DNA of 64,000 nt, taken from an uncultured virus (IMG/VR IMGVR_UViG_3300020256_000017) (taxonomy: Duplodnaviria > Heunggongvirae > Uroviricota > Caudoviricetes). A program made the translations under genes and the position numbers. Shown here one piece after another: positions 1-59,732 of the stretch; position 1 is the first letter of the stretch, and every line of letters begins with the position of its first letter. Where the stretch lies: IMG/VR virus record IMGVR_UViG_3300020256_000017, one strand, 5' to 3'. Under the pieces are notes generated by a model that saw only the letters and a list, made by a program, of their open reading frames with translations, was not told where the DNA came from and did no database searches.

Positions 1-644
1 GCCTGAGTGTCAGAAAACAGCAAGCGAGCGGCGTTGTATTCCTCTACCGTAGGTTTATCTGGAAAATAAGGGCAATCCTCGTCATCTTCACAGCGTTCCG
101 AGAAGGCACCGAGCTTAGTTAACAGTGGTGAATCACCAAATTGGTCGGTGTCAATGGTAATTTTTTCGCCGTTTAGGTAAACTCCCGCGTGTTCACAGTT
201 GAATTGAGATACCTCAAGATTATAACCGTGCACATCCCGCTCGTAAAAAATAACACCCAACAGTTCCACCGTGGTGTCGCCGGACGCGGTGCTGGTGAAG
301 CGAAGGATGTTGGCATAATGGTCATTGCCATTGGTGTCATTGTCGATGCGCTTTCGGATAAGTTTGACCGCTTGGTCTTTACCATCGGCAAACTCAGCAA
401 TGCCTTCAGAAATAGTGTTAAGCACAGTATCTAAAATGGCGGCATCTTTGATTTCTTTTTTTATCAGTGAGGTGATGGTTTTCAAGCCCACATATGAAAT
501 GAAGTTTTTCAGGTGTATTGGCGCTTCACTCTGAACAAAAGAGTTGTACGTATCTAAGGTGGTGCGTGCAGCATGTAATTTCTTGGTCATATCAGAGAGT
601 GCGTTGATGTTCTCGCGAGACCAAAGGGTATTTAATGATGGCAT
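1..644 (-). CDS. Hypothetical protein, partial (runs off the left edge)
   Basis: ATG at 644 follows a GGAG RBS and a box promoter; frame MPSLNTLWSREN... is open to base 1; absent from the ORF track. Confidence 0.8.
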   Translation of the reverse strand, partial: MPSLNTLWSRENINALSDMTKKLHAARTTLDTYNSFVQSEAPIHLKNFISYVGLKTITSLIKKEIKDAAILDTVLNTISEGIAEFADGKDQAVKLIRKRIDNDTNGNDHYANILRFTSTASGDTTVELLGVIFYERDVHGYNLEVSQFNCEHAGVYLNGEKITIDTDQFGDSPLLTKLGAFSERCEDDEDCPYFPDKPTVEEYNAARLLFSDTQ

Positions 645-5576: not shown

Positions 5577-5624
5577 TGTGTTGACATGTTAATTATCTCA
5601 AAAGTAAGTGTTCAAGTCAACACA
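5577..5624 (-). promoter_or_regulatory. GTCAACACA-box promoter with full inverted repeat
   Basis: TTGTGTTGAC-N30-GTCAACACAA; TTGACT-N17-GATAAT. Confidence 0.85.
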
Positions 5625-6999: not shown

Positions 7000-8022
7000 A
7001 TGTCAAACGAAATACCATTAAGAAAAGTAATCCAAAACGAAAAAGACCTAGCTGCGTTAAGAGAAAGTTTACGAGCGTCACTGACGTTAGAGCAAGTTGT
7101 CGGTCTATTTAAGCATACCATTAAAAAGGAATCGCTGGGTGACAGTGTTGCGCGTGCGGTAGGCCAAAAAGCGCGTGATAGCATAAAGCAAAGCGCAGCC
7201 GATAAGCTCGCCGCTGACATGTTGGGGTTTCACAACACTAATGAAATGTTTGCGCATTACCAAGTCCAATACTTCAATGTTTCTCTGTTTCGTCACCATC
7301 GTGAGTATGATGACGCAAGCGTCAATGTAGTACGTGAACAAGGTGTAGAAGTTGGCGTACTTGATATGCTTTACATGTATCCAGACATCTTTCATTACAA
7401 GTTTGAAAAAGAACTGCATGCTTTTGAGTATGAGGCAGAGATTAAAAAGGATCTTCGCCGTGATGAAGTTGAAGGCTACCGTTATTTCTTCGACGCCACA
7501 TCACCATTGACAGGCGCGGCCTTCAATTTAAGCAGTGTCCCTGATTTGCTGGATAGGATCCCATCGTATTTTAGTTTTACCCGAAAAACAAAAGATTTAC
7601 CTGAACTAATGAGCCATTTGGTGGTTCAGGCAGGAGTAGGAGTCAACTTTGAGGGCATGGGTGATCCGCTGGCCGTTAATTTTGGTGAAGGTGACTGTAA
7701 GGTTATTGGCATTGACCATGATGCATCCGACCCGCGTGAGACGCTAAAGTCTCTGAGTGACGTGATGATGAAGGCGCATCCTGAACTGTTCGAAAAAGAC
7801 CTGAATGAAACGGTGGTGGAGACCCTCATATCCCGAGCAGGCTTTAATAAAAAGGGGAATGCGACTGCGTTTTATGAACCTTATGATTTATACTACGACC
7901 ACTATAATGCGAGCGTGATAATCACTAGATTAGGCGTGCCTTATGTGGGCGCAGGGTTGTACCTTGATGCAAGTGACATTCGCTGTAAAGCGCACTACGA
8001 GAGCTGCAAGCGCAAGGATTGA
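7000..8022 (+). CDS. Hypothetical protein with a Glyoxalase_8-like N-terminal helical segment
   Basis: IKQSAADKLAADMLGFHNTNEMFAH motif; GAGGA RBS. Confidence 0.7.
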   Translation: MSNEIPLRKVIQNEKDLAALRESLRASLTLEQVVGLFKHTIKKESLGDSVARAVGQKARDSIKQSAADKLAADMLGFHNTNEMFAHYQVQYFNVSLFRHHREYDDASVNVVREQGVEVGVLDMLYMYPDIFHYKFEKELHAFEYEAEIKKDLRRDEVEGYRYFFDATSPLTGAAFNLSSVPDLLDRIPSYFSFTRKTKDLPELMSHLVVQAGVGVNFEGMGDPLAVNFGEGDCKVIGIDHDASDPRETLKSLSDVMMKAHPELFEKDLNETVVETLISRAGFNKKGNATAFYEPYDLYYDHYNASVIITRLGVPYVGAGLYLDASDIRCKAHYESCKRKD

Positions 8023-8031
8023 TGGTAGCGT

Positions 8032-8075
8032 AAAAAAACAAAAACCTCGCTAATCAGCGAGGTTTTTTTGTTTTT
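8032..8075. terminator. Bidirectional intrinsic terminator
   Basis: AAAAACCTCGCT-AATC-AGCGAGGTTTTT flanked by A and T runs, between convergent genes. Confidence 0.85.
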
Positions 8076-12954: not shown

Positions 12955-13033
12955 TAGGTGTCCTTTCCGTTGAGGAAAATTGATAGCGAGGGCGGGTTAC
13001 GCCCTCAGGATAATGATGTTGAACGGACAGTTT

Positions 13034-13408
13034 TTAGGCTGCCGCTTCATTAAAAACAGGGAGGTGATAGCTCAGGGTGGCCAATGCATTAAACATGTGG
13101 GCGCGCTCCATGTTGGCGCTTAAGCATTGAACAGGATAGCCGTCGTTAGGTACGTCTGTTGGAAGTAGCGGCTCACTAATGCGTACGTTCTTTGACAGTA
13201 GTGCCCTTGCGTCGTCTTCGTCCTTAGCAAAGACTAAGCCCAACGCATTAACCCCAAGGTACGTTGCACTAAAGACCCACATACGATTACCTAGCCCTTT
13301 GCTCATGCCTTCCCAAGCAAAGTCAATTAATGAATCGAACTGAACTTTGCGGTCGGCGATATCGTTTCCCGTGTTAGGACGGATATTAAAGCTAATTGGT
13401 GATTGCAT
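13034..13408 (-). CDS. Hypothetical protein
   Basis: Start MQSPISF after GGAG RBS and box. Confidence 0.75.
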   Translation of the reverse strand: MQSPISFNIRPNTGNDIADRKVQFDSLIDFAWEGMSKGLGNRMWVFSATYLGVNALGLVFAKDEDDARALLSKNVRISEPLLPTDVPNDGYPVQCLSANMERAHMFNALATLSYHLPVFNEAAA

Positions 13409-13426
13409 GGTAATATTACTCCGAGT

Positions 13427-13470
13427 TGTGTTGACAGGGACAGTATTACAAACACTGTGAGTATTGTCAA
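13427..13470 (-). promoter_or_regulatory. GTCAACACA-box promoter
   Basis: TTGAC-N30-GTCAACACA. Confidence 0.8.
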
Positions 13471-14012
13471 TCAATTTCATCATCATTGTCCGCGTTAACA
13501 GCAGCGACACTGTCTTTAAACCCCTTCTGAGTCAGCGGGTAACGAAATCCCTTATGCTCCAACATAATGCGCTCCTCAAAATTAGACAACGTGTCTGTAA
13601 TCTCGTCATGATCCATATCCCATGGCACCTCGACACGAGTGATGAGGAGTTGAATGTTATCACGGTGTACGTTGTTGTGATTGAAGTTCATCATGGAGCT
13701 TAACTCGGCCATAATGCCTTTCTTGTTCTCATTCCATACGTAGCCTGATGATGTGTGTCTTAGCGTTTCATAGCAGATCAGGTATACAATTTTCCCTCCG
13801 CCAATACGATAAGGCGGTATGGCGTCAACATCCTGCGCTTCGAAAAGCGAAAGTTGAGCCTCGTAGGGTTCAATGCCTTTGAAACCGTGTCGATTGGCAA
13901 TTTTCTTTCTCAGTTTGTTTAAGGGGATGTTGAGATGTTCTGACAGCTTTTTTGTTTCATCTCGAAAGTGGGCCACCGAAAGGAAGCCAAGAATAGGTGG
14001 GCAATGCATCAT
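13467..14012 (-). CDS. Hypothetical protein with a Glyoxalase_8-like N-terminal helical segment
   Basis: IPLNKLRKKIANRHGFKGIEPYEAQL motif; GGAG RBS. Confidence 0.7.
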   Translation of the reverse strand: MMHCPPILGFLSVAHFRDETKKLSEHLNIPLNKLRKKIANRHGFKGIEPYEAQLSLFEAQDVDAIPPYRIGGGKIVYLICYETLRHTSSGYVWNENKKGIMAELSSMMNFNHNNVHRDNIQLLITRVEVPWDMDHDEITDTLSNFEERIMLEHKGFRYPLTQKGFKDSVAAVNADNDDEID

Positions 14013-14024
14013 ATAACACTCCAA

Positions 14025-14180
14025 AAACGTTGTCTTTTTACTTTACGGGTTACCTCACTCACCACCACGACAACGCATGTTGTGTTTATACTATGTGCTG
14101 TTGTTGTGTACTCTTTTGCCAGTGTGAGGCGGCGGGCTGAGTGCCCATTCAAGATTTTACGGCCATGCCAACTCGAAGTA
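14025..14180 (-). ncRNA. Candidate structured 5' leader (pseudoknot-like)
   Basis: Adjacent hairpins at 14118-14146 (loops ACUCA, CCUCAC) and distal hairpin 14028-14075 with loop GUGAGUGAGG complementary to them; shares CGCCGCC with the 6841 leader. Confidence 0.45.
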
Positions 14181-14372
14181 ATTAAATAATACCACAGTAG
14201 GGGATAAAGGCAAGCTATTTAAAATGTTGTGCAGGTGAAGAGAGTAAGTTAATTTGTTGCCTTATTCTAAAGTAGTGTTGTTATTTACTTGAAAGTATGA
14301 AAGAATTCATGTCATTGCTGTCAACGCAATATAAAATCATTTTCAAACACAACCCTGTAAGAAGGAATAATA

Positions 14373-14786
14373 ATGCTTAAAAAAGTAGTATTAGCGTTAT
14401 CGCTTAGTGCGAGTGTTGCCGTCTCTGCATTTGCTGAAGTGGCTGTCATTGTTCACCCTGAAAACACAGCAGAAATTACTGCTGAAGATGTAGCGCGTAT
14501 GTTCTTGGGTAAGGCGGGCCAATTTAGCGATGGTAAGGAGGTGCTCCCTATCACGCAAGAAACAGCGACGACGACGGATGCTTTTAATACGGGGTTGCTA
14601 AATCGTAGCAGCTCACAGGTCGCCAGCTATTGGGCAAAACAGGTGTTTACCGGAAAAGGATCGGCGCCAAAACAAGTAAGTGATGACGCCGCCGTCATCA
14701 ATCTCGTTAAAGACAATAAAAACGCCATCTCTTACGTCGATGCATCAAGCGTCACGGGTGATGTTAAAGTCGTATTGACCAAGTAG
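14373..14786 (+). CDS. Small periplasmic-binding-protein-like protein (phosphate ABC SBP-like family)
   Basis: Signal peptide; VAVIVHP..FLGK..YWAKQVFTGKG..P..AISYVD pattern. Confidence 0.8.
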   Translation: MLKKVVLALSLSASVAVSAFAEVAVIVHPENTAEITAEDVARMFLGKAGQFSDGKEVLPITQETATTTDAFNTGLLNRSSSQVASYWAKQVFTGKGSAPKQVSDDAAVINLVKDNKNAISYVDASSVTGDVKVVLTK

Positions 14787-14797
14787 GGGACAGCAAA

Positions 14798-15967
14798 ATG
14801 AAGAACATGAAAAAATCATTGTTAGCAGCGAGTGTTATGTTGGCCGCAGCGGGTGCGCAGGCGGATGTGACGATCAATGGATTCGGTAACGTTGTTGGCG
14901 GTATCGCCAGCAGTGATGATGTTGTGTTGAATTTTGATGACAATATCGATTTTCAAAACGACAGCTTGTTTGCGTTACAATTTTCATCAGACGTATCAGA
15001 CAAGATAACGGCAACAGCCCAGGTGTTATCGCGTGGTGAAGATGACTTTGATGTGGCGTTTGAGTGGGCTTACCTCTCTTACGAAGTTAACAACAACTGG
15101 ACCGTAACCGCGGGCCGCTCTCGTCTTCCTTTATTTGCCTATTCGGCGTCACTGGATGTGGGTTATACCTATCATTGGGTAACCGCACCGAATGCAATCT
15201 ACAATGTGCCTTTCAATAACCTTGATGGTGTAAAAGTGAGCTACAGCAACATGCTGGGCGGTTGGGATATCCTGACTGATGTGGCGGCAGGGCAATTTAA
15301 AGGTGACGCCTTTGGTGCGGACCTTCGTGGAGAAAACACGCTGTTAGTATCATTGCAGGCGAGTAATGAAAGCTTGACCGTCCGTGGGGTGGTTGGGCGA
15401 ACAGATGCCACCCTTGATCTTGCAGGTTCAAGTGATGAGCAGGCGGCCTTGCTGGCAGGTGGCTTCTCAACTATGCGAGAGCTGGGTTTAGTCGCGCTAT
15501 CGGACTCGCTTGAAATGGAAGATGATGAAGGTCAATTCCTGGGCGCTAGCGTGATGTGGGACAACTATCAGTATTTTGTAGGCGCAGAGCTAACTAAAGT
15601 GATGATTGATGATAGTTTTAGCAATGATGATACGGCATACTATGTCACCGCCGGTGCGCGTTATGGTAAGTGGACACCGTCTATTACGTATGAACGCTTC
15701 GAGTCTGAGTTGTCTATCAATAACGCGTCACTTATCAATGATATCGCTGGTTCAGGGCTACCAGACAGCGTGGCTGCAACCTTAACAAGCGTCGCATTAG
15801 GTGCGCAGGCTTCTCAGGTTGAAGATTACAGTATTACATCTGTGGCATTGCGCTATGATTTGGATAGCGGTGTGGCATTAAAGGCTGATGTGTCTCGATA
15901 CAATGATGATGTGTCAGACGATAATGATGGCACATTGGCGCGCGTTGCGGTTAATTTTGTATTCTAG
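14798..15967 (+). CDS. Outer-membrane porin (beta-barrel)
   Basis: Signal peptide, INGFG start, EWAYLSY, C-terminal aromatic ..VNFVF; paired with the binding-protein gene. Confidence 0.8.
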   Translation: MKNMKKSLLAASVMLAAAGAQADVTINGFGNVVGGIASSDDVVLNFDDNIDFQNDSLFALQFSSDVSDKITATAQVLSRGEDDFDVAFEWAYLSYEVNNNWTVTAGRSRLPLFAYSASLDVGYTYHWVTAPNAIYNVPFNNLDGVKVSYSNMLGGWDILTDVAAGQFKGDAFGADLRGENTLLVSLQASNESLTVRGVVGRTDATLDLAGSSDEQAALLAGGFSTMRELGLVALSDSLEMEDDEGQFLGASVMWDNYQYFVGAELTKVMIDDSFSNDDTAYYVTAGARYGKWTPSITYERFESELSINNASLINDIAGSGLPDSVAATLTSVALGAQASQVEDYSITSVALRYDLDSGVALKADVSRYNDDVSDDNDGTLARVAVNFVF

Positions 15968-15982
15968 ATTTACAGTTGAACC

Positions 15983-16010
15983 AAAAAGGGCAGTATAACC
16001 TGCCCTTTTT
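15983..16010 (+). terminator. Intrinsic terminator
   Basis: AAAAAGGGCAG..CTGCCCTTTTT. Confidence 0.8.
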
Positions 16011-16069
16011 ATTTATTGTATTTTGACACATTGGTGTTATAATAATTAAAGTTTAAGTAAGGAGGCATT

Positions 16070-16120
16070 ATGCCGATTAAGTACCATGCCATACAGGGGC
16101 GCATGACATTCCGAATGTGA
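16070..16120 (+). CDS. Candidate 16 aa leader peptide MPIKYHAIQGRMTFRM
   Basis: Perfect TAAGGAGG SD before the ATG; stop lies 23 nt before the next gene. Confidence 0.45.
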   Translation: MPIKYHAIQGRMTFRM

Positions 16121-16143
16121 AGTTTTACATTAGGAGATAAATC

Positions 16144-16863
16144 ATGTACGAGGTTCCTGTTTATGAGCCTAAAATTATAGAGCGCACGCCGACACGGGTT
16201 CGCATTTTTGAAAACTTGGCAGCATACATTGCTTCCCCGGTGAAACGGAAAGCAACCGCTTCAGAAGCCTATGTGTGTCGTCACTGTGACGCAAGATACT
16301 TAACGCTCGAACAGGCGATAGGTAGCGATTGCAAGCATCGTCTTAGGAAGCGAGAGACACCTTTAAGGCCGCGAGAAGGTGAGTCTGAAAGGATGTATTA
16401 TTTTCGTTTAAGAGCAAGGGAGTTCGTGCCTCATGCGCGCGAAGACTTCTATGAAGTCGCCAAGGTAACCACTGAGTTTGGTGATCCCTTGCCTGAGCCT
16501 ACTAAGCCGCGTCCATGGGGGCCGCGAGGTCACTTAACGTCAGTGGCTGCATGGATGGAAAGCGATTGTTCGCCTTATAATCGCGGCGTGCTCCCTGGAG
16601 AACGGGAGTCTGGTTTTAACCGTTGGTTAAGTAAGTTCAAGCATCAACCTGGCTATGTGAGAACAGGGTACTGTTATCGCCGCCCTAAGGTAATGGCAGA
16701 GCGCCGGAGCCTTGAGGCCCTTAAGATGGAGCCTGATGCGCCAAACGTTCGCGGTAAGCGCGGTGCTTCAGCGTTGCCAAATGAGTTTAATGAAAAGTAC
16801 GTGTGCTTAGAACGAACTTGGAAAAGGAAAAAAGTGCGTAAGCAGTGGATGGTAAATGCCTAA
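16144..16863 (+). CDS. Basic hypothetical protein
   Basis: AGGAG RBS; Arg/Lys-rich, CxxC, C-terminal RTWKRKKVRKQW. Confidence 0.75.
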   Translation: MYEVPVYEPKIIERTPTRVRIFENLAAYIASPVKRKATASEAYVCRHCDARYLTLEQAIGSDCKHRLRKRETPLRPREGESERMYYFRLRAREFVPHAREDFYEVAKVTTEFGDPLPEPTKPRPWGPRGHLTSVAAWMESDCSPYNRGVLPGERESGFNRWLSKFKHQPGYVRTGYCYRRPKVMAERRSLEALKMEPDAPNVRGKRGASALPNEFNEKYVCLERTWKRKKVRKQWMVNA

Positions 16864-16865
16864 AA

Positions 16866-16892
16866 CAAAAACCACGCATAAGCGTGGTTTTT
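16866..16892. terminator. Bidirectional intrinsic terminator
   Basis: AAAACCACGC-ATAA-GCGTGGTTTTTT. Confidence 0.8.
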
Positions 16893-16899
16893 TGTCTGG

Positions 16900-17724
16900 T
16901 TACATTTGCATGAGACTTTTTCGTCGTCTCACCCAAGAAGCGCCCAGCATCAGCAGCCCCGCAGAGGCGAGCATAGGCGCGCCGACATTCGTTGGATTTT
17001 CAATGATGTTACCTGTTTCATCAATGGGGATGTCTGCGTCGTTGCCTGGCGACGTGTAGTCTGCGCCAAGGTAGTCATAGCCTTTGAAGTACATAGCAAG
17101 GCGGCCGTTGGGAGATTTCTCTTTCCAATGGTAATATGAATAATAATCTTTGACGTTCCAGTGAAACGTTGCGGTACCAGAAACTGACTCAATCCACTGC
17201 TCATCGCTGTCAGTAAACTCCATGAATTTTGTCTTACCAAGTTTTGACTTGTAAGAGATAGGATCGATGAGTGCCGTTTCATTCCATGTATCTAACGTCA
17301 TGTTGATGTAGGCATTATCAAAGAAATAGCCTGACCAGCCAGAGGTGTTAAAATAAATACCAAGCGCGTCCCAATCCCCTTCCAGAGACTGTGTTTGCAC
17401 TGTTGTCCCACCAAATGAATAAGTGGTGTCAGTTCCATCACGCGTGATAGACCAATCAAACGTATGTTTGAACCAATCAAGATTGTGGTTCCCATCGTAG
17501 CTCAACCAATTTAAATTGGATGAATCGCCGTGACTGCCATTTCCGGTACGAACCGCAATATCATGCCCACGTTGTCCACCATTAGGTAGAGAGTGATCAA
17601 CCTTGGTTTCCGTATAAAAAAGCTTTTTTGCTTCAGGATAGTCGTGTACCAGGATCGGCTCTGCATTCACTGATGATACGAACGCGACCGAGCTTAAAAT
17701 AAGCGTACAGAGTGTGTTTTTCAT
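16900..17724 (-). CDS. PEP-CTERM-like sorted surface protein
   Basis: Signal peptide; C-terminal VGAP, TM helix, RRRK. Confidence 0.75.
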   Translation of the reverse strand: MKNTLCTLILSSVAFVSSVNAEPILVHDYPEAKKLFYTETKVDHSLPNGGQRGHDIAVRTGNGSHGDSSNLNWLSYDGNHNLDWFKHTFDWSITRDGTDTTYSFGGTTVQTQSLEGDWDALGIYFNTSGWSGYFFDNAYINMTLDTWNETALIDPISYKSKLGKTKFMEFTDSDEQWIESVSGTATFHWNVKDYYSYYHWKEKSPNGRLAMYFKGYDYLGADYTSPGNDADIPIDETGNIIENPTNVGAPMLASAGLLMLGASWVRRRKSLMQM

Positions 17725-17995
17725 AATATTCCATTTTTATTAGTGGTGGATTTTCTCGCTATAGGAGGAGAATACACAATTATATGTTGTGGGTCAAATA
17801 ATGTACATTAGACATTGGTTTAGTTTTTTTTGGCCATGCGAAGTCTTAGGTGGTGCGGGTTAGCGAGCATTCGTTAAATTTTCACAAAATAAGATGTTGA
17901 CTTAAATGAAAATTCTCCGTACTGTAAATTTACTCCTGTCAAGGAGCGCAGTACATTTCAACCCATTGATACAATTCGTAGAAAGGATGAAGGAT

Positions 17996-18208
17996 ATGCG
18001 AAAAGCAACACTAAAGGTTTCACTTTTAGCTTCAGCGTTAATGATGAGTATGGCGGCCAGTGCGGCGTCAGAAAAAATCGTAGTCTCTGAAGATGTCCAA
18101 GTTAAAGATGTTGCGTCTGCTGGATTTAGCTTGGATATAAGTGCTCCTCCAGCCGAGCAAAAAACCAAGCCTAAAGGACCTAGGCTTCCACCTGCGTCTA
18201 AAAAGTAG
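17996..18208 (+). CDS. Small secreted protein
   Basis: MRKATLK signal peptide; LDISAPP motif and Lys-rich tail. Confidence 0.65.
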   Translation: MRKATLKVSLLASALMMSMAASAASEKIVVSEDVQVKDVASAGFSLDISAPPAEQKTKPKGPRLPPASKK

Positions 18209-18278
18209 TAAGGCGTAGTTTCATCTATCCACTTTATGTTATTGTAAATATTAAATCCAAAAAGAAGGAAATATCATC

Positions 18279-18533
18279 ATGCGAACGCGTTTAGTTAAAA
18301 ATACTCTTTTGGTTGCAGCCGTCGCTTTTGCTTCAACCGCAGCAAGTGCCGCCACCTCTGTAAATGGTGGAGATTTGGCCGCAGATGCTATGAATGACGG
18401 CGCGCCAGTCGTTATTGACATGGGCTCAGCAGAAACGCAGATGAATAAGTCGATGCTCATCGATGTTGCGCCGCCTCCGCCAAAAAGCGATACGGTTACA
18501 ACCCAAGGTAAATCGAGAACAAAAAAGAAATAG
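18279..18533 (+). CDS. Small secreted protein
   Basis: Signal peptide; IDVAPPPP motif and Lys-rich tail. Confidence 0.7.
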   Translation: MRTRLVKNTLLVAAVAFASTAASAATSVNGGDLAADAMNDGAPVVIDMGSAETQMNKSMLIDVAPPPPKSDTVTTQGKSRTKKK

Positions 18534-18552
18534 CCTTGCGTAAATAATAACG

Positions 18553-18580
18553 AAAAAAGCCGCTTTAAAAGCGGCTTTTT
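18553..18580. terminator. Intrinsic terminator
   Basis: AAAAAAGCCGCTT-TA-AAAGCGGCTTTTT. Confidence 0.8.
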
Positions 18581-18619
18581 GTTATGATTCCTCTAATTGA
18601 TTGAGAAAAAGCGCTCGAC

Positions 18620-18734
18620 TTGAAGCCTCCGACGAGTCATTCGAAGAATCGACTCGCGGAATCCAGACACTAACCTGCTTTAGACTGTTGCAACAACCAT
18701 AAAGAGGATAGCACTAGAATGCGGCTGACAAATG
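18620..18734 (-). mobile_element. Miniature internally deleted derivative of the IS200/IS605 element
   Basis: 18620-18716 matches 57901-57997 (right end); 18715-18734 matches 59762-59781 (left tip); same TTGAA flank. Confidence 0.9.
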
Positions 18735-18884
18735 TTCAACAAGCGATTACCCATTCTTGCTGCTGCCCGTATTTCGGAGCGAGCGCTTTTGTGAACGAGT
18801 TAATGTTAACAGGATTGGTGAGTTAAATCAACGATGAAAAGGTGTTCTTGGTGTGGAAGGCTTTCGCCTTCCATCATGCCAAGG

Positions 18885-19730
18885 TTAGAGCTTAAGCTCA
18901 TCGGCGTAAACAACATCGTCAATGTCATCGTAACGCCAGAAGGTGTGTGCATGATAGCCATCATCCGTTTTGATAAAGTCGACCGCAACACTTGACTCTG
19001 AACGCATGGCATCAATAAGCGCACTAACGTCAAAATCTTTCAGTGCTAAAGCCCGCTTTGCCATAGCGCTCTTGAAGGTTTTGGGACCAAACGCCATGAT
19101 AGTTTGTTGGTCGCTCATGTATAAACGAATGCAATGCCCAGGGACAGGAGAGTGCATGGATAGCCATTCAGCCTTACGAAAGGCAAGTCCTTTGCTCGCA
19201 TAGAGCTTTATGTTGTTGTTCTCGTCAGGGATAGGGTTAGCGGCAAGGTGCATGTCGCCATGAAGAATATCATTGTCTTCAACGCATTTTATTAACCACT
19301 CATCTAGCGTTAGTGTGCTGGGCAACTGTTCGCAATTAAAGCTTATTGGAGACAGAACAATGTCATCTTTAGGTGCAGGGACAGAGTAAATTTCATAGTC
19401 TCTCTTGTCGGAGAACTCTCTGAATTCACCACGCGTAGGATAGACGGGACGTCCTTCTTTCCACCACGCCGGAATGTTGTCATCGACGATGGTGTCTTTG
19501 AGCGTTGATAATGCTTGGAGGCTATCATTATCGGCGGCGCCATCTGCAATGTGATAGACCCACCCATTTAAGCCTTGTACGCGCTGTGTGCTTGGATCGA
19601 AGGCGATAGCGGTGATCATTGAGCCTGTGCGGCCAAGAGGGTCATCAGATAGCGTGCTCATAATATGAAGGCGACCAGGTTTACGTAATGGGTTAATGCG
19701 TTGAACGCACGTTATTGTGCTGAGGTGCAT
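18885..19730 (-). CDS. Hypothetical protein
   Basis: 281 aa ORF after GGAG RBS and box. Confidence 0.8.
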   Translation of the reverse strand: MHLSTITCVQRINPLRKPGRLHIMSTLSDDPLGRTGSMITAIAFDPSTQRVQGLNGWVYHIADGAADNDSLQALSTLKDTIVDDNIPAWWKEGRPVYPTRGEFREFSDKRDYEIYSVPAPKDDIVLSPISFNCEQLPSTLTLDEWLIKCVEDNDILHGDMHLAANPIPDENNNIKLYASKGLAFRKAEWLSMHSPVPGHCIRLYMSDQQTIMAFGPKTFKSAMAKRALALKDFDVSALIDAMRSESSVAVDFIKTDDGYHAHTFWRYDDIDDVVYADELKL

Positions 19731-19743
19731 GTGTTTCTCCGTT

Positions 19744-19788
19744 TGTGTTGACAGGTGACATTATGCCTGAGGCTGTGTGCTTTGTCAA
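19744..19788 (-). promoter_or_regulatory. GTCAACACA-box promoter
   Basis: TTGACA..CATAAT..GTCAACACA. Confidence 0.8.
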
Positions 19789-19879
19789 TGGCTTTTTGAA
19801 ACTTTGATTTAAATAATGGAATAAGTTTTGCTTTATTTAAGGAAAGTGGCTTAGGTATGCCGAAAAAAGGAATGAGAAT

Positions 19880-20557
19880 ATGAGAAAGTGGTTAGTGGGC
19901 GCAGTGTTTACCGTATTATCCTGTGCCAGCCAAGCAGGATTTATTGATACTGATTGGAAAGTGTCAGGTGATGGGTTGGCAACGCTGCATGAAGAAACCG
20001 GTATTGAGTGGCTTAAGGTGACAAACACATTAGGGCAAAGTGTCGATGATGTTCAGGCTGATCTGGCTCCTGGTGGAAGTCTTGAGGGGTGGCGTATTCC
20101 TACGTCAGAGGAAATAGTCACATTATGGGAAGCGAATTTTGCAGGCAGCTCTGTGCTGAACAATCCTCAGGGGACCCGTCGAAACTATTCGCTTTACACA
20201 CAGCAAGCACAGGATTGGGTTTCGAACATGGGTGAGGTAACCCCCTCCCCGACAATCCGGTCTTATGGCCTAGGATACAAAGAGAACGGGCAGCTTGGTT
20301 TTTTTGGTGTGTCGCGCGCATCGGGACAGACGTCGTATTGGTACGGGTATGGTGACAACACAACTGATTATACAAACCAGTACATGGGCGTGTTGTTGGT
20401 GTCCGATGGCGGCGTTACATTAAGCTCCATCAATGACCCATCATTAAACATTCAAAATCCTCAGGCGCCGATTAACCAAGTGTCAGCACCTTTGCTTGGA
20501 GGCTTTGGCCTGATGACAATTGGACTAATGCTGCGTCGAAGAACAGCAAAGGGTTGA
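19880..20557 (+). CDS. PEP-CTERM-like sorted surface protein
   Basis: Signal peptide; C-terminal VSAP, TM helix, RRR; paralog of 30931. Confidence 0.8.
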   Translation: MRKWLVGAVFTVLSCASQAGFIDTDWKVSGDGLATLHEETGIEWLKVTNTLGQSVDDVQADLAPGGSLEGWRIPTSEEIVTLWEANFAGSSVLNNPQGTRRNYSLYTQQAQDWVSNMGEVTPSPTIRSYGLGYKENGQLGFFGVSRASGQTSYWYGYGDNTTDYTNQYMGVLLVSDGGVTLSSINDPSLNIQNPQAPINQVSAPLLGGFGLMTIGLMLRRRTAKG

Positions 20558-20571
20558 GCTATCCACAGATA

Positions 20572-20601
20572 CAAAAAAAGCGCCTTTATGGCGCTTTTTT
20601 G
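20572..20601. terminator. Bidirectional intrinsic terminator
   Basis: AAAAAAAGCGCC-TTTAT-GGCGCTTTTTT. Confidence 0.85.
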
Positions 20602-20825
20602 TTTAGGAGCTGCACGCTGAGAAGGCGTCAACACAACAGAGCGTGCAGCGAAGGGGGGCCTAGCACCAAGAGGGCGTCAACACAACAGGTGCCAGGCAAA
20701 TAAACTGGGCGGTTATATAGGCATTAAGTGTTGACGTTCTTAGTGCCCCGCGGCTAACAGACCGAGTAATCTCAAGGCGTTGTTAGCATTGTCGTCAGGT
20801 TTGAACCTGTGTTCTCCCTGTCGAC
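20572..20825 (-). ncRNA. Candidate multi-hairpin sRNA carrying two anti-box loops
   Basis: Promoter at 20832-20860, no plausible ORF, several hairpins, two loops with CUGUUGUGUUGACGCC, ends at a terminator with a U run. Confidence 0.7.
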
Positions 20826-20860
20826 ATGTGTATCCTCTCACAACATTTAGATCCTGTCAA
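20819..20860 (-). promoter_or_regulatory. Box-family promoter of the candidate sRNA (variant +1 GTCGACA)
   Basis: TTGACA-N17-GAGGAT with extended TG, N6, GTCGACA. Confidence 0.7.
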
Positions 20861-20897
20861 CACTTTTTCTGTTTTTTTTCGATCTTTTTTTACGTGA

Positions 20898-21290
20898 CTA
20901 CAAATAGCCGCGACAAGCTTTGATAAATGATGACGTAGCGATGCTAATGCGCTGGTTTGTCATGTCCAATGACAACGGCATTAGTTTATCGTTATTACAG
21001 GTTTCTCTCACCTGCATGTTGTAGTCGCCAATATAATGGGCAACAGTAATAATCTCATTCTCATCGAAGTGTGTGTAAAGCGCCGTGTCCCGTGGGAGGT
21101 CGGCCGCTTTGTTTCGTATCGCAGATAGTGCGTTAAATCCAAGTGTAATGCGCTCTGTTGGTGTTACGTATGCAGTGGACGCCTCAGCAACAGAATCCAC
21201 TTTTGCTAAGTTAAGCGCAGCCGCATTTGCACCAATGATAAAACCTGCAATTAAAACCGCTAAGCGAGGTGAGGTATGGGTTGTTGACAT
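20898..21290 (-). CDS. Hypothetical exported or membrane-anchored protein
   Basis: N-terminal hydrophobic segment, GGAG RBS, box promoter. Confidence 0.75.
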   Translation of the reverse strand: MSTTHTSPRLAVLIAGFIIGANAAALNLAKVDSVAEASTAYVTPTERITLGFNALSAIRNKAADLPRDTALYTHFDENEIITVAHYIGDYNMQVRETCNNDKLMPLSLDMTNQRISIATSSFIKACRGYL

Positions 21291-21304
21291 GATGTTCTCC
21301 GTAC

Positions 21305-21348
21305 TGTGTTGACAAAGCTATTATCTCAAAAGCTGTGTTTGTAGTCAA
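21305..21348 (-). promoter_or_regulatory. GTCAACACA-box promoter
   Basis: TTGACT..TGAGATAAT..GTCAACACA. Confidence 0.85.
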
Positions 21349-21362
21349 GTGTGGAACTGACT

Positions 21363-21716
21363 TTAGGTCAACAAAATAGGATTGTTCATTTTTAAAATGC
21401 GTGACTCTTCATCAGGATAATAGAACTGAAAGTCCACCTGCCTTCCTCCAAAGTGAGGCTTTTGGTGGTCAGCGGTAAATCTTGCATGATAATGCTCTGA
21501 CACGCTAATTGACCGCTTGCCTTTTACCGGATTTATCACTAAAAGGATATCCAGATCGCTGTCAGGACGAGCTTCCCCTCTGGAGGTGCTGCCAGCCAGA
21601 TAGGCACGTACAATAGGGTATTGTCGCTTAACCCATAGGTTACGACGAAGCAGACGCGTTGCCTCTATGAGTGTAGGTATAGCAATGGTGTCTCCAGATG
21701 TATCTTGGAAGTGCAT
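21363..21716 (-). CDS. Minimal nucleotidyltransferase (Pol beta superfamily)
   Basis: AGSTSRGEARPDSDLDIL motif and a third Asp in VDF. Confidence 0.8.
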   Translation of the reverse strand: MHFQDTSGDTIAIPTLIEATRLLRRNLWVKRQYPIVRAYLAGSTSRGEARPDSDLDILLVINPVKGKRSISVSEHYHARFTADHQKPHFGGRQVDFQFYYPDEESRILKMNNPILLT

Positions 21717-21731
21717 AGTAAATCTCTACGT

Positions 21732-21775
21732 TGTGTTGACAATTATATTGTCACACACGCGAAAGGGGCTGTCAA
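21732..21775 (-). promoter_or_regulatory. GTCAACACA-box promoter
   Basis: TTGACA..TGTGACAAT..GTCAACACA. Confidence 0.8.
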
Positions 21776-21844
21776 AAGGAGAATATTACAGTTTAAAAAA
21801 AAGGTGCTATCATCATTTTCGCCATGGAGTGATTGGAGATTATC

Positions 21845-22180
21845 ATGTTATATGTCACCGTTATGCAAGGTTACCGCGCGATATTTCGAACCAAAAAAGA
21901 TGCTGTAGAAGCCGGTTTAGTAGACGACGTCATTGAGGACTGTAGGGAAAAAGGCCTGGTTGTGCTGTGTGATATGGACAGTAAGATGAGGTACCATTAT
22001 TTTGTTGGACTGCCAATAACAGAAGATGCGTGTCTCTGTGATGGAAAAATGGTATCAGCCAAAGCACCAAAAAAGAATAAGCGGGAAATTAAGGCCGCTT
22101 GGGACAAATTACAGCGCGCGCTAAACGCGCCTATAAAGAAAAAATACGGTTACGGTGTACATGCTTTGGCTAGGGCGTAA
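21845..22180 (+). CDS. Hypothetical protein
   Basis: GGAG RBS; followed by a terminator hairpin at about 22180-22205. Confidence 0.65.
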   Translation: MLYVTVMQGYRAIFRTKKDAVEAGLVDDVIEDCREKGLVVLCDMDSKMRYHYFVGLPITEDACLCDGKMVSAKAPKKNKREIKAAWDKLQRALNAPIKKKYGYGVHALARA

Positions 22181-22206
22181 AAAAAGGAGGCTAGCCTCCT
22201 TTTTGA

Positions 22207-22806
22207 TCATTTTGGTAAATTTTCCATATACTTCTCAGCTCGAACAATATCCGCTTCTGAGTGAGTGAAACCGCGATTGATATCGATATAATAGGTGCAG
22301 GCTTCACGCTCGGTCTCGAAAACGAAGCACTGAAGGTGACAGCGCACATGGTTAAGCAATGACAAGCTCTTAATGTCATCGAAACTCAATCCATTAAATA
22401 CCGTAAATTTATTTTCAGTAAAGTCTACCCATGCTGTTGATCGCTGCAACCCATCAAGCACTTTGCTGTGAAGCGGTATGCTGTTGCTGTAAGTAGTGTC
22501 ACTGGCAAGCCCAAAGATTTGCAGTGTCGACCGAAAACCGGATAGTGAATTTTCTATGAATTTAACCTGCTTTTCTCTGGACCACTTGTCAGCATCACGC
22601 TGAAAACCAGGTGTCATTAGTTGCAGTGCGGACCTCAGGTCGCCATGCTCCTCGAAGTGCGCCTCAGCATCGACATTCATAGCAAGAAATTGACTTGCGA
22701 AGCGACGGGGAGAAAAGGTGATTTCTTCTAATGGTGCGCGCGAAAAAGGGTTGCCTCCAATGCCGGAAAGTAATCGTTCTTCTATGTTATGCATGTAATG
22801 CCTCAT
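22207..22806 (-). CDS. DUF262/ParB-like domain protein
   Basis: PGFQR...W and VLDGLQR motifs. Confidence 0.7.
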   Translation of the reverse strand: MRHYMHNIEERLLSGIGGNPFSRAPLEEITFSPRRFASQFLAMNVDAEAHFEEHGDLRSALQLMTPGFQRDADKWSREKQVKFIENSLSGFRSTLQIFGLASDTTYSNSIPLHSKVLDGLQRSTAWVDFTENKFTVFNGLSFDDIKSLSLLNHVRCHLQCFVFETEREACTYYIDINRGFTHSEADIVRAEKYMENLPK

Positions 22807-23426
22807 CTTTTTTTGATAAGAGAAAGAAAAGCGATTGAGCTCTCCTCTTGCGACGGCGTCGCTGAAGAAAGAGCACCAGAGGTCATCATTGTGGCAAGTA
22901 GCTCATCATGAAGCGACGCTGCCGACAGGCTGTCCCCAAACACAAGGATAGGGGAATCCTCCGACTCGCCTTGTGCCAGCGCGTTACCCCATGCGTCAAG
23001 CGAGCCACCATTGTCCAAGATAAGATAAACCGGCATCGTGTTGAGTTCAGGTAAAAGCGCATACAGGGGAGTGGCAAGCATGGACAGTATGATCTCCACT
23101 CGTTCGATATCAGTGGCGTGCGTGAACCGTGCAATGTCGTCTGGTTCGCCTTCCATTCCCGAAGTGTCAATATCCAGTAGCGCTTCAGCTTTATCGCAAA
23201 TATTGTTTAAGAGCGTGTGCTCTTCTGCCCAGTCACCTAACGCATCCGCTGTGACGTCATTTTTATTCGGATGAGTTTCATATAGCATACGATACAATAA
23301 GCATAGCGCCATTACATTAAGCGCTTCACTTGTCATTACATTGCTGTAGACACATTGTTCATCTCGCACGCGTGCAATAATGTCATCACGCGACGCAAGC
23401 GGTGTTAAAATCGTTGCTGTGTTCAT
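22803..23426 (-). CDS. Hypothetical protein
   Basis: Start MNTATIL after AGGA RBS and box. Confidence 0.75.
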   Translation of the reverse strand: MNTATILTPLASRDDIIARVRDEQCVYSNVMTSEALNVMALCLLYRMLYETHPNKNDVTADALGDWAEEHTLLNNICDKAEALLDIDTSGMEGEPDDIARFTHATDIERVEIILSMLATPLYALLPELNTMPVYLILDNGGSLDAWGNALAQGESEDSPILVFGDSLSAASLHDELLATMMTSGALSSATPSQEESSIAFLSLIKKR

Positions 23427-23444
23427 GGTGTTGTTTCCTGTAAT

Positions 23445-23489
23445 TGTGTTGACGAAAATCAGTATCGCATTATGTGAGGGCGTTGTCAA
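23445..23489 (-). promoter_or_regulatory. GTCAACACA-box promoter
   Basis: TTGACA..TGCGATACT..GTCAACACA. Confidence 0.85.
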
Positions 23490-23561
23490 CATGAGGAATA
23501 TAGTGAAATGCCAAGCAACTAGAGATCACGGAGTTTACTCGCTAAATAATCGGCAAAAGAG

Positions 23562-23960
23562 GTGGATATGGGTATGTACATTAACTCATCGTATAGTGAT
23601 CGTGACCGTTCGCGTATGTATGTGACGTTTTTTGATGAGGCTGGAGCGCAAGCTGGCGCTATTACACAGTTAGGCTATTACGATTTGAGTTCATGGGGGT
23701 ATCGCGAAGTCAATGATGTAAAAGTGCCGGAGCTCGCGCGTGACTTCAGGATTGTTATTCACAATGACAGGTTGGACGGTACAGGCAATAGCACAGGCGT
23801 TGCGTTGCCGTCGATGACATTTTCCCTGGAGGATAACGAAGAGTCACGCCAGGCGCTAAACACTTTTGGTTATTTACAACAAAGCGTTAGCGATGTGCCT
23901 GTTGGCATGCTGGGTGGATTCGGGTTTGGTATGCTGTTGCTGGCGCGTCGTAAGCGATAG
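23562..23960 (+). pseudogene. 5'-truncated PEP-CTERM-like gene
   Basis: VPVG, TM helix, RRKR tail but no signal peptide; resembles the C-terminal half of the 10432 protein. Confidence 0.6.
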
Positions 23961-33859: not shown

Positions 33860-33904
33860 TGTGTTGACGCGTTACATCCTCTCATAAGAGGCGGAATAAA
33901 TCAA
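33860..33904 (-). promoter_or_regulatory. GTCAACACA-box promoter
   Basis: TTGATT..TGAGAGGAT..GTCAACACA. Confidence 0.8.
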
Positions 33905-42377: not shown

Positions 42378-42422
42378 TGTGTTGACATGAAGTATTGTCC
42401 CAAAAGTTAAGAGGGTTGTCAA
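42378..42422 (-). promoter_or_regulatory. GTCAACACA-box promoter
   Basis: TTGACA..TGGGACAAT..GTCAACACA. Confidence 0.8.
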
Positions 42423-57844: not shown

Positions 57845-57950
57845 GTGACCTTTTAGTGTTTTAACGTGGTTTACCAGTCTTCGAAGCGAGGCTCTTCCAT
57901 TTGAAGCCTCCGACGAGTCATTCGAAGAATCGACTCGCGGAATCCAGACA

Positions 57951-59282: not shown

Positions 59283-59312
59283 ATTAAATACCTTATCAGT
59301 TACAATTAAATA

Positions 59313-59732
59313 ATGCAACCACAGAACACGCTTAAACCGCTTAATCATAGTGCTTATAGACTTCATTACCATGTTGTTTTTGTAATTAAATACCGTAATA
59401 GAGTAATAAACCGGGATGTGATGGAAAGGATGCGCGATATCTTTAGTCACGTACTTGGGAAGTGGGGGTGTGAATTAAGTGAATTTGGTGCAGAAGAAGA
59501 TCATGTACACCTGCTTATAGAAGCACATCCATCGCTTAATCTATCCAGAATGATAGGAAATCTTAAAACGGTCTCCGCAAGGCATATTCGAAAAGAATAT
59601 GCAGAGCATTTAAGTAAATATTTTTGGAAACCTTATTTCTGGTCAAGAGCGTATGCTGTTACTACAACGGGAGGTGCCAATTTAGAGAAAGTAAAAGATT
59701 ACGTTTTGTCTCAAGAAAAACCGTCAGCCTAG
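59313..59732 (+). CDS. tnpA: IS200-type Y1 HUH transposase
   Basis: YHVVFVIKYR, DHVHLL, FWSRAY and C-terminal YxxxQ. Confidence 0.95.
   Translation: MQPQNTLKPLNHSAYRLHYHVVFVIKYRNRVINRDVMERMRDIFSHVLGKWGCELSEFGAEEDHVHLLIEAHPSLNLSRMIGNLKTVSARHIRKEYAEHLSKYFWKPYFWSRAYAVTTTGGANLEKVKDYVLSQEKPSA

Follow-up and report, generated by a model that had tools for sequence, protein, structure and literature searches.

We have identified a gene-free unit at positions 20572-20860 of the window (the whole 64,000-nt stretch of DNA analyzed, IMG/VR record IMGVR_UViG_3300020256_000017), and we consider it fairly probable that this unit encodes a non-coding, trans-acting, GcvB-like sRNA directed against the leaders of many mRNAs, which it would repress by analogy. 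As predicted, an RNA with a defined start arises from the minus strand of the unit. It fits the trans-acting sRNA kind in having its own promoter, an intrinsic terminator and no coding frame, and the genes that carry the matching 5' tag are probably controlled together by the sRNA. Our finding of RNA 5' ends at 20825 (sRNA) and 21740 (a tagged mRNA), obtained from assembled contigs, is new.

The unit has a minus-strand promoter of the same class as the promoters of the tagged genes, in which a nine-nt box, GTCAACACA, stands at +1. Its features, in the order in which they occur on the minus strand, are as follows.

20855-20860, minus strand: -35 hexamer TTGACA, read from the sequence; hexamer and 17-nt spacing as in the box class; unchanged in the relative L044
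20832-20840, minus strand: extended -10 element TGA-GAGGAT, read from the sequence, with GAGGAT at 20832-20837 and TGA at the end of the 17-nt spacer; unchanged in L044
20817-20825, minus strand: transcription start G 20825 (+/-1) and altered +1 box GTCGACAGG, which begins 6 nt past the -10; from an X18 contig end and its label
20791-20825, minus strand: predicted 5'-terminal stem-loop, RNA 1-35, closing the RNA's own 5' end in the minimum-energy fold
20753-20787, minus strand: predicted second stem-loop, RNA 39-73, from the minimum-energy fold
20728-20736, minus strand: sense copy of the tag inside the sRNA (RNA 90-98), CGUCAACAC, read from the sequence
20658-20697, minus strand: hairpin B, RNA 129-168, 10-bp stem with one G.U pair and loop UGUUGUGUUGACGCCCUCUU, read from the sequence
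20609-20649, minus strand: hairpin A, RNA 177-217, 10-bp Watson-Crick stem and 21-nt loop CUGUUGUGUUGACGCCUUCUC, from the sequence and the fold
20572-20601, both directions: two-way intrinsic terminator with a GCGCC/GGCGC stem between A7 and T7, read from the sequence and folded on both strands

The promoter, altered box, hairpins, loop 16-mers and terminator all lie where the original prediction had placed them. Both loops contain an identical 16-mer, GGCGTCAACACAACAG (20624-20639 and 20673-20688), which has only these two exact copies in the window and is the exact complement of the element's +1 to +13 consensus. The two stems had been described as unrelated; they do differ overall, but GC-UG-CAC / GUGC-AG-C can be recognized by eye in both, and hairpin B has two added pairs. 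The terminator (AAAAAAAGCGCC-TTTAT-GGCGCTTTTTTT) is symmetric and is common to the sRNA unit and the plus-strand gene 19880-20557; it is known from reading the sequence and was absent from the output of a simple terminator scan. No open frame with a ribosome site was found on the sRNA, no gene on the opposite strand of 20558-20897, and no other anti-box hairpins in the window. The neighboring genes 19880-20557 and 20898-21290 belong to no Pfam or NCBIfam family.

The box occurs 31 times in the window against an expectation of 0.91 +/- 0.89, and 31 or more copies were reached in none of 100 shuffles. Twenty-six copies (25 on the minus strand and one on the plus strand) are promoter-linked and occupy the same position, 6-8 nt past a -10-like hexamer in near-consensus sigma-70 promoters, with TTGA(C/T) at the -35 place in 23 of them. 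The promoter with its start at 33868 has a GAGGAT -10 as well, as in the sRNA promoter. The link between tag and promoter was as claimed originally; the claimed number of about 29 tagged mRNAs came down to these 26 promoter-linked boxes. Two of the five remaining copies are the sRNA loops; the copy at 5616+ is a reverse reading of the -35 flank of the 5585 promoter, and those at 42621+ and 44453+ are not of the promoter type. In 22 of the 26 leaders, the tag is followed by a purine-rich ribosome site and a start codon at offsets of 16-32 from the 5' end, the start codon of tagged mRNAs being about 17-33 nt from that end. The tag is an unstructured C/A-rich stretch situated 3-8 nt before the Shine-Dalgarno sequence. 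Three example targets are listed here.

21732-21740, minus strand: +1 box of gene 21363-21716, with the mRNA 5' end at 21740, from an X18 contig end and 5'-end label
21305-21313, minus strand: +1 box of gene 20898-21290, at the end of X19 contig 20862-21313 (a weak hint)
19744-19752, minus strand: +1 box of gene 18885-19730, from promoter architecture; box unchanged in L044

Evidence for 5' ends was taken from the assembled contigs of X18, one run of a public oligo-dT RNA library. At 20825 and 21740, window sequence in X18 contigs gives way to the reverse complement of TGGTATCAACGCAGAGTACGGG, which is the Smart-seq2 template-switch start label; a 3' label would have T's instead (PMC9245221, in the excerpted text). 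From these contig ends and the 5'-end label we take the leading G of the altered box as the start of the minus-strand RNA and the G of GTCAACACA as that of the box mRNA, with a doubt of +/-1 nt from the GGG of the label and with primary and processed ends indistinguishable in contigs. Minus-strand transcription from the unit's own promoter had been predicted and is borne out by the label junction at 20825. That box mRNAs begin with GUCAACACA likewise agrees with the junction at 21740 and with the RNA contig end at 21313.

Other contigs offer weaker hints. X19 contigs cover 19874-20818 and 20862-21313 and leave 20819-20861 uncovered, and the second of them ends exactly at the first G of a box; an X19 contig also extends 56 nt past the start of the box at 19744-19752, so contig ends are not always starts. 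Short X17 contigs within 20210-20825 have mean word depths of 13,000-22,000, compared with 832 and 3,055 for the long contigs flanking this region, which is again a weak hint since contig word depths are unsuitable for ranking genes. X17 contigs of high depth are also found at 20210-20300, inside the convergent gene, and therefore RNA may pass the terminator, or the 3' part of the neighbor may itself be abundant. Another X17 contig spans the sRNA promoter (20816 onwards, upstream), so that part of the RNA may be read-through from the upstream gene. X18 and X20 have uncovered bins upstream of 20825, such gaps in contig cover counting as no evidence. The 3' end of the sRNA probably lies near 20575, at the terminator, giving a length of about 250 nt. 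The sRNA and the tagged mRNAs occur in the same RNA samples, which was counted against repression.

The sRNA has a predicted folding energy of -97.8 kcal/mol (z = -6.0), equalled by none of 200 shuffles, and the plus strand folds at -100.4 kcal/mol (z = -4.5); neither folding energy nor G.U counts separated the strands. Stem pair probabilities in hairpin A are 0.96-1.0, and opening its loop costs 2.9-3.8 kcal/mol. Opening the tag costs 0.10-1.64 kcal/mol. Folding and leader interactions had been proposed as a check, and the outcome was divided: the tag is predicted to be single-stranded in all 25 minus-strand leaders and loop A to be open, whereas loop B is predicted to be masked. The net predicted pairing energy of loop A with the leaders is -7.7 to -12.9 kcal/mol (mean -9.7), with an exact loop match of 9 nt in nine leaders, 10 nt in seven, 11 nt in five and 12 nt in five. 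A 9-nt match is short, and this was counted against anti-leader action for nine of the 26 targets.

Hairpin B competes in the full-length RNA with a longer helix, RNA 77-98 / 143-174, in which the internal sense copy (RNA 90-98) pairs with the loop-B copy at an ensemble probability of about 0.99. The conformer with hairpin B lies 2.3 kcal/mol above the minimum, and opening its 13-mer costs 10.2 kcal/mol. Only loop A is thus predicted to be free, loop B being masked by the internal sense tag copy. Nested co-folding of the sRNA with the leaders gave -5.9 kcal/mol compared with -5.2 for controls and did not discriminate between them, in a model that cannot draw a contact between a loop and a tail. 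The opening energies place an accessible seed in the sRNA and accessible target sites near the ribosome site of several mRNAs. According to the original prediction the unit would not target itself, and the altered box and the closure of the 5' end in its own predicted stem agree with this, but seven pairs with the loop remain available. The pyrimidine tract GCCYUCUY of both loops was considered as an anti-Shine-Dalgarno seed and rejected, box leaders behaving like other start regions (duplex energies of -3.7 and -4.1 for box leaders and of -3.7 and -3.7 for 83 other start regions).

Comparative support comes from one relative, L044, which is 94-98% identical. No change separates the window from L044 in 176 nt, made up of the 35-nt promoter and the 141 nt of RNA 77-217, as against 19 changes in 107 flanking nt. 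RNA 1-76 differs at 3 of 76 nt, the spacer and terminator at 7 of 37, and the flanks at 9 of 39 and 3 of 31. Hairpins A and B are both unchanged, and at the altered +1 box L044 has GTCGAAAGG. L044 has C6->A in the 5'-terminal stem, which costs it one pair and leaves the stem without comparative support; U65->C turns G48.U65 into G-C, consistent with the second stem-loop. The terminator keeps its stem in L044, with four of five loop bases different. Conserved loops and covarying stems had been named as a further check: the core is indeed unchanged, but there is no compensatory double change between the window and L044. Counted by eye across eight comparable promoters, the 72 box nt and the 48 nt of -35 sequence show no differences, as against 12 over the spacer, -10 and discriminator together (about 235 nt). 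The box is as conserved as the -35 hexamer.

We propose the following mechanism. The sRNA and at least 26 window genes share a near-consensus sigma-70 cassette, the first bases of the sRNA differing from the tag. Tagged mRNAs open exactly with 5'-GUCAACACA(AC), and the open 21-nt loop of hairpin A displays the complement CUGUUGUGUUGAC and would pair with the free mRNA 5' end over 9-12 bp, while the second anti-tag copy would either be displayed in hairpin B or be masked by the internal sense tag. Because the leaders are so short, the duplex would fall within the stretch bound by the 30S subunit. Pairing would, as with GcvB at its C/A-rich sites, lower the translation, and probably the mRNA stability, of the whole tagged set. 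The anatomy of the unit, its start site and strand, the tag at mRNA 5' ends, the complementarity and accessibility, and the local conservation are shown, while in-cell pairing, the direction of the effect and a role in timing are inferred.

Several other explanations were weighed. The loops might instead mimic GcvB toward the host, repressing C/A-rich host mRNAs for amino-acid uptake and synthesis, with the match to the element's own tag secondary. This is compatible with our proposal and, as the main function, unlikely. The loops contain UGUUGUGUU, which equals nine of the ten bases of the Pasteurella multocida GcvB seed AUGUUGUGUU in the excerpted source, where GcvB targets bear AACACAAC; however, the loops also match the tag-initial GUC, which GcvB sites do not need, and the 16-mer complements exactly the element's own consensus. 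Paired 5' ends are able to shield mRNAs from RNase E and RppH, and the sRNA might accordingly act positively, its 5'-end duplex protecting tagged mRNAs from 5'-end-dependent decay and leaving the ribosome site free. That pairing covers only +1 to +9..12, with the Shine-Dalgarno sequence 3-8 nt further on, speaks for such protection. We nevertheless regard it as improbable, in that the whole leader falls within the 30S footprint of -39 to +19, and GcvB represses at equivalent C/A-rich sites (PMC5900567, excerpt).

It is distinctly unlikely that the box is mainly a DNA operator for a regulator protein binding at +1, with the unit's three copies regulating or titrating that protein and the RNA incidental. 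At very strong promoters the box does overlap the transcription start, where operators typically lie; its GTCAA is the inverse of the -35 TTGAC, and it is conserved like the -35 hexamer. Yet the anti-box copies sit in the loops of 10-bp hairpins whose stems differ in sequence and keep their pairing, which indicates RNA or single strand; moreover, the unit has its own promoter, terminator and mapped 5' end, and a Pfam scan of 86 window proteins, most of them orphans, turned up no DNA-binding family, helix-turn-helix included. We are more doubtful still that the unit is a cis-acting part of longer transcripts, either as a 3' UTR of 20898-21290 or as a two-state leader governing terminator read-through into RNA antisense to 19880-20557. 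The lack of a terminator between gene 20898-21290 and the unit, the X17 contig bridging 20816 and upstream sequence, the high-depth X17 contigs reaching 20210 and the mutually exclusive helices directly before the terminator would suit it. The 5' end exactly at the predicted start of the unit promoter and, as a weak hint, the 20819-20861 gap in X19 cover do not, and the mirroring of loop and tag would be left unexplained. CsrB/RsmZ-type sponges have many GGA motifs in hairpin loops, and the original prediction had named a CsrB-like protein sponge made from the plus strand as the alternative. Such an RNA would carry the tag in two loops and soak up a tag-binding protein. The plus strand folds about equally well, but this alternative found no support and is very improbable: there is no plus-strand promoter, the region lies behind the terminator of a plus-strand gene, the 5' end that was mapped belongs to a minus-strand RNA, and neither loop contains GGA on either strand. 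In addition, hairpin B and the alternative helix each have one pair that reads G.U in minus-strand RNA but A.C in plus-strand RNA, so that the G-U pair of the second stem fits the minus strand as had been predicted.

The preferred anti-leader sRNA resembles several described systems in part. In IS10, RNA-OUT is a stable antisense hairpin whose loop starts pairing at the extreme 5' end of RNA-IN and blocks ribosome binding. The likeness is that of a hairpin loop acting against an mRNA 5' end; RNA-OUT, however, is encoded opposite a single target to which it is fully complementary over about 35 bp, while the sRNA is encoded elsewhere, has a 9-12 nt match, would serve dozens of mRNAs and has no Rfam match. 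The P1/P7 c4 and P4 CI RNAs are also mobile-element RNAs whose loops pair with short repeated sites in their own transcripts and keep blocks of genes down. The c4 RNA has a few sites in one operon and is processed from that operon, and the sRNA does not match the Rfam C4 family. The GcvB gene is divergent from gcvA, and the sRNA, unlike GcvB, is not beside gcvA. No Rfam family reached its gathering score in the whole window, and the GcvB model RF00022 had no match at E <= 10 in 19500-22000. ColE1 RNAI (RF00106) reached 22.5 bits, well below its gathering score of 47 (E = 0.29; 20571-20656, minus strand), a chance-level likeness of stem-loop plus terminator.

The layout had been put forward as one without a described precedent. 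GcvB, by pairing with C/A-rich sites, is a close mechanistic precedent. In enterobacteria, Pasteurella and Vibrio, GcvB uses one G/U-rich seed (AUGUUGUGUU) against a C/A-rich site, AACACAAC(AT), that many mRNAs carry on their ribosome site or a short way before it, and it represses these mRNAs; most of these sites are within the 30S footprint, and pairing was confirmed by compensatory mutants (PMC5900567, excerpt). Seed and target sequences overlap with those described here, and both RNAs end in an intrinsic terminator. With regard to the GcvB-type pair of site and seed (AACACAAC / CACAACAT), both loops have UGUUGUGUU; on the target side, all 26 leaders have AACACA within the extended tag, and 10 of them have AACACAAC there. 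The present system differs from GcvB in that the target is an identical tag at the extreme mRNA 5' end, provided by a shared promoter cassette on one replicon, in that the seed is displayed twice in hairpin loops, and in that the RNA holds a sense copy of its own target.

Three phage systems are related in logic, as far as the excerpted sources describe them. T4 RegB is expressed under an early-type promoter and acts on a short motif in translation initiation regions, by which it inactivates many early mRNAs (PMC3014915); this class-wide shut-off is shared, but RegB is a protein nuclease cutting GGAG, whereas the agent proposed here is an RNA that would recognize a 5' tag. PeSL elements of T4-type phages are small, portable, strong sigma-70-like promoter cassettes placed before many orphan genes in plastic regions (PMC2839356), and SAS of Cluster K mycobacteriophages is a 13-bp tag just before many start codons, for which the source leaves open whether RNA or protein reads it (PMC3203893). 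In these excerpts neither PeSL nor SAS has a known antisense RNA partner, and SAS lies over the ribosome site, while the box tag lies at the mRNA 5' end. Among the papers listed on phage-encoded small RNAs, early genes, antisense RNA and shut-off, none, judged by title and opening lines of the abstract, describes a shared 5' tag with an antisense RNA. Among the matches listed for GTCAACACA with promoter, none dealt with a bacterium or a mobile element.

An sRNA with many targets normally acquires them gene by gene. If our proposal is true, the target site is issued with the promoter, so a gene gaining the cassette would at once join two regulons, one transcriptional and one post-transcriptional. 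It would be a very simple, portable design for the control of a whole gene class and would account for the restraint of the many orphan genes with near-consensus promoters on this replicon, which measures at least 486 kb. Given the likeness of the seed to that of GcvB, cross-talk might also arise between the mobile element and a core regulon of its host. More tentatively, the element may possess a post-transcriptional layer of its own, in which the cassette marks a large part of the orphan genes with a 5' barcode, itself an enhancer of the C/A-rich GcvB type, and one or several anti-barcode sRNAs from the same cassette read it. The present sRNA, with one of its two seeds masked by an internal barcode copy, would be a two-state threshold or timer that shuts the barcoded set off once the element is active in a cell; the seed would further couple this layer to the host GcvB amino-acid regulon. 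We hold this wider scheme to be possible rather than probable.

Relatives of the element are few. Searches of plasmid and phage records with DNA 20400-21300 and with a 666-aa protein returned no match. The two-loop pattern was found at 33 genome-contig and three viral-contig loci, which are unrelated repeats or chance, and the promoter-plus-box pattern at two viral-contig and seven genome-contig loci, which are single chance matches (three of the nine, L034, L035 and L040, were inspected). A MAG with an 82% TnpB relative has no box promoter. Protein 18885-19730 gave no usable locus in viral and genome contigs, and among 5.8 billion proteins it belongs to only two clusters, at 100% and 87% identity. 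Most window proteins are left unnamed by Pfam, PHROGs and NCBIfam, and plasmid, phage and island are for this reason not told apart. A metagenome scan returned only L043, which is the same element, and L044. The sRNA is present in public marine RNA data, and the element appears to exist in culture, in at least one isolate.

The gene-free unit at 20572-20860, which encodes the candidate minus-strand sRNA, is real, expressed and conserved, and is not a chance arrangement. No plausible gene was found on either strand between 20558 and 20897, and re-reading of the sequence placed the two hairpins (A, 20609-20649; B, 20658-20697), with the identical 16-mer complementary to the tag in their loops, exactly as originally predicted. 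This 16-mer has two exact copies in the window and none further, and a search of the window for other anti-box hairpin units found none, leaving the unit as the sole one. The features below were read from the sequence, except for the masking helix, which comes from the predicted fold; RNA numbering begins at 20825.

20860-20855, minus: sRNA promoter -35, TTGACA, followed by 17 nt with TGA at the end
20837-20832, minus: sRNA promoter -10, GAGGAT, followed by 6 nt
from 20825, minus: altered +1 box, GTCGACAGG
between altered box and terminator, minus: strongly folding stretch of ~220 nt
20728-20749 with 20652-20683, minus: masking helix (RNA 77-98 with 143-174)
20728-20736, minus: internal sense copy of the tag, CGUCAACAC (RNA 90-98)
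20601-20572, minus reading: symmetric terminator, AAAAAAAGCGCC-ATAAA-GGCGCUUUUUUU, common to the convergent gene 19880-20557

The terminator was absent from the output of a simple terminator scan, probably because its A/T runs lengthen the stem.

The tag, GTCAACACA, occurs 31 times in the window against 0.91 copies expected, a number reached in none of 100 shuffles. Twenty-six copies are of promoter type (all 25 on the minus strand and the plus-strand copy at 53810), lying 6-8 nt behind a -10-like hexamer that is mostly (TGA)GATAAT or GATACT; a -35 element TTGA(C/T) with a 17-nt spacer precedes 23 of these. The other five comprise the two sRNA loops, the copy at 5616 (plus), which results from reading the 5585 promoter's -35 flank in reverse, and the copies at 42621 and 44453 (both plus), which are not promoter-type. 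A purine-rich ribosome site and start codon follow at offsets 16-32 behind the tag in 22 of the 26 leaders; among the remaining four, that at 42386 is long and three were missed by the ribosome-site/start-codon rule. Past the 9-mer, position +10 is A in 17/26 leaders and +11 is C in 12/26, and the exact leader match to the loop sequence therefore varies from 9 nt (nine leaders) through 10 (seven) and 11 (five) to 12 (five). The +1 box GTCAA(CACA) is also the inverse of the -35 TTGAC, which gives each box promoter a short inverted repeat ~30 nt apart, and at 5577-5624 this symmetry is longer, TGTGTTGAC...GTCAACACA; the repeat may reflect an operator or be coincidental.

The region 18800-23500 is present nearly word for word in runs of 14 studies, including marine metagenomes, one organism-labelled run and six RNA runs, and assembled contigs from four RNA runs served as evidence for transcription. 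In the oligo-dT library X18, one contig covers 19700-20825 and continues with 22 letters foreign to the window, and a second covers 21711-21740, after which 19 of these letters follow. Reverse-complemented, the letters read TGGTATCAACGCAGAGTACGGG, the Smart-seq2-type 5'-end ('start') label; according to PMC9245221, the corresponding 3' label has T's where the start label has GGG. In each contig the label follows the plus-strand end, so the two RNAs belong to the minus strand, and their 5' ends fall at 20825 and 21740, to within +/-1 nt since the label itself has G's. The former is the first G of the altered box, and the latter the first G of the tag of gene 21363-21716. Thus, the predicted promoter drives transcription of the unit, and the tag forms the very 5' end of a box-promoter mRNA, which bears out two central points of the original prediction. 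Weaker hints come from the RNA run X19, in which one contig has its end precisely on the box G (21313) of gene 20898-21290 and another spans 19874-20818.

RNA over the unit may alternatively be read-through from upstream, as a contig from a further RNA run, X17, bridges the unit's promoter; an X19 contig overruns the start at 19752 by 56 nt. As a further weak hint of transcription, short X17 contigs within 20210-20825 have mean word depths of 13,000-22,000 versus 832 and 3,055 for the long flanking contigs, figures that cannot rank genes. Those at 20210-20300, in the 3' half of the convergent gene 19880-20557, reach ~21,000-22,000, matching the depth over the 5' end of the sRNA. The sRNA may therefore read through its terminator into RNA antisense to this gene, in keeping with the extension of high-depth contigs to 20210, or a stable piece from the 3' part of the gene's mRNA may build up separately.

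For the RNA initiated at 20825, a minus-strand fold of -97.8 kcal/mol (z = -6.0) was predicted; folding energy did not separate the minus from the plus strand. Hairpin A (RNA 177-217) has pair probabilities of 0.96-1.0 and a 21-nt loop predicted to be largely open. Hairpin B is missing from the minimum-energy fold, and the conformer containing it is 2.3 kcal/mol worse. In the predicted fold, the loop-B copy GUGUUGACG pairs with the internal sense tag, and the neighbouring UCUUGGUGC with GCACUAAGA, which together with C's paired to G's gives a masking helix of ~22 bp (probability ~0.99). This helix and hairpin B use the same 3' arm and are mutually exclusive; each contains one pair that is G.U here and would become A.C in a plus-strand RNA. 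As modelled, the sense tag and exclusive helices look like a deliberate two-state design, and the masking helix would possibly be a substrate for a double-strand RNase.

Pairing with the leaders was estimated by combining accessibility (opening energy) with duplex energy. Opening costs 2.9-3.8 kcal/mol for loop A, 5.7-10.2 kcal/mol for loop B and 0.10-1.64 kcal/mol for the tag in 25/25 minus-strand leaders, and the net predicted pairing energy is -7.7 to -12.9 kcal/mol (mean -9.7). The pyrimidine tract behind the seed in both loops was considered as a partner for ribosome sites and rejected, having no special fit to those of the leaders. On balance, we favor the reading that the unit is a trans-acting anti-leader sRNA that reduces expression of the tagged genes; we infer the effect on these genes, its sign and any timing role.

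No Rfam family reached threshold anywhere in the window, and at E <= 10 the unit's matches were limited to a chance-level likeness to RNAI and to hits of terminator type. There are parallels in IS10 RNA-OUT, whose loop pairs with a 5' end, and in P1/P7 c4, where a mobile element's RNA acts against repeated sites. In mechanism, the nearest system is GcvB, whose targets, as described in PMC5900567, have AACACAAC(AT) or CACAACAT and whose seed is AUGUUGUGUU; its sites lie mostly within the 30S footprint, and compensatory mutants proved the pairing. Similarly, UGUUGUGUU is present in the loops of the unit, and AACACAAC in the tag with its extension. In contrast to GcvB, every leader has the identical tag as its site, placed at the 5' terminus by a promoter cassette and confined to a single giant replicon; the seed is present twice, in loops, and the RNA contains a copy of its own target. 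It is on these differences that the interest of the unit rests. T4 RegB is a functional parallel, as early mRNAs are inactivated class-wide (PMC3014915). Comparable portable promoters exist in PeSL cassettes (PMC2839356), and comparable shared tags, without a known reader, in SAS (PMC3203893). No description of a shared 5' tag with an antisense sRNA was found in the literature searched.

No DNA or protein matches were found in plasmid and phage records, pattern-based scanning of genomes and viral contigs turned up chance matches only, and a neighbouring protein gave two protein clusters; the element is rare in the searched collections. A metagenome scan returned a 486-kb contig of the same element and, on a 230-kb contig, one relative, L044 (94-98% DNA identity), and no others.

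Nucleotide differences between the window and L044
promoter: 0/35
RNA 1-76: 3/76
RNA 77-217 (sense box and both hairpins): 0/141
spacer and terminator: 7/37, including 4/5 terminator-loop bases
upstream flank: 9/39
downstream flank: 3/31

The hairpin loops are thus conserved, as anticipated, in this one relative. In L044, a G.U pair becomes G-C through U65->C, and one pair is lost through C6->A; no double compensatory change separates the two sequences, so covariation cannot be judged from them. Across eight comparable box promoters, none of the 72 box nt or 48 -35 nt is changed, versus 12 changes (counted by eye) in about 235 nt between box and -35. At 7123-8032, L044 has another gene, on a stretch of ~900 nt that replaces the window's 136 nt at 21696-21831, which hold the nucleotidyltransferase gene's promoter. 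The replacement also starts with a box promoter and tag, and the cassette is therefore portable; the arrangement points to gene shuffling via cassettes, by analogy with the PeSLs of T4-type phages.

The element is a marine replicon of very large size (a 486-kb contig) and wide occurrence (14 studies), and it is almost entirely uncharacterised. Its G+C is about 45%, the window holds no tRNA, and most window proteins are without a family, with few Pfam matches among those scanned. A TnpB relative was found in the MAG of a marine gammaproteobacterium. A direct repeat of 97 nt, exact in both copies, occurs at 18620-18716, isolated and intergenic, and at 57901-57997, where it spans the 3' terminus of a TnpB-like gene (57951-59450) and extends into the adjacent DNA beyond it; in IS200/605-type elements, the guide-RNA and right-end sequence is located at or behind the 3' end of the TnpB gene. 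Three secreted-looking proteins, encoded at 16900-17724 (minus), 19880-20557 (plus) and 23562-23960 (plus), received no name from Pfam or NCBIfam, and the two plus-strand genes lack a box promoter. In all three, a C-terminal hydrophobic stretch is followed by RRR/RRK, which in sequence resembles a PEP-CTERM-type sorting signal.
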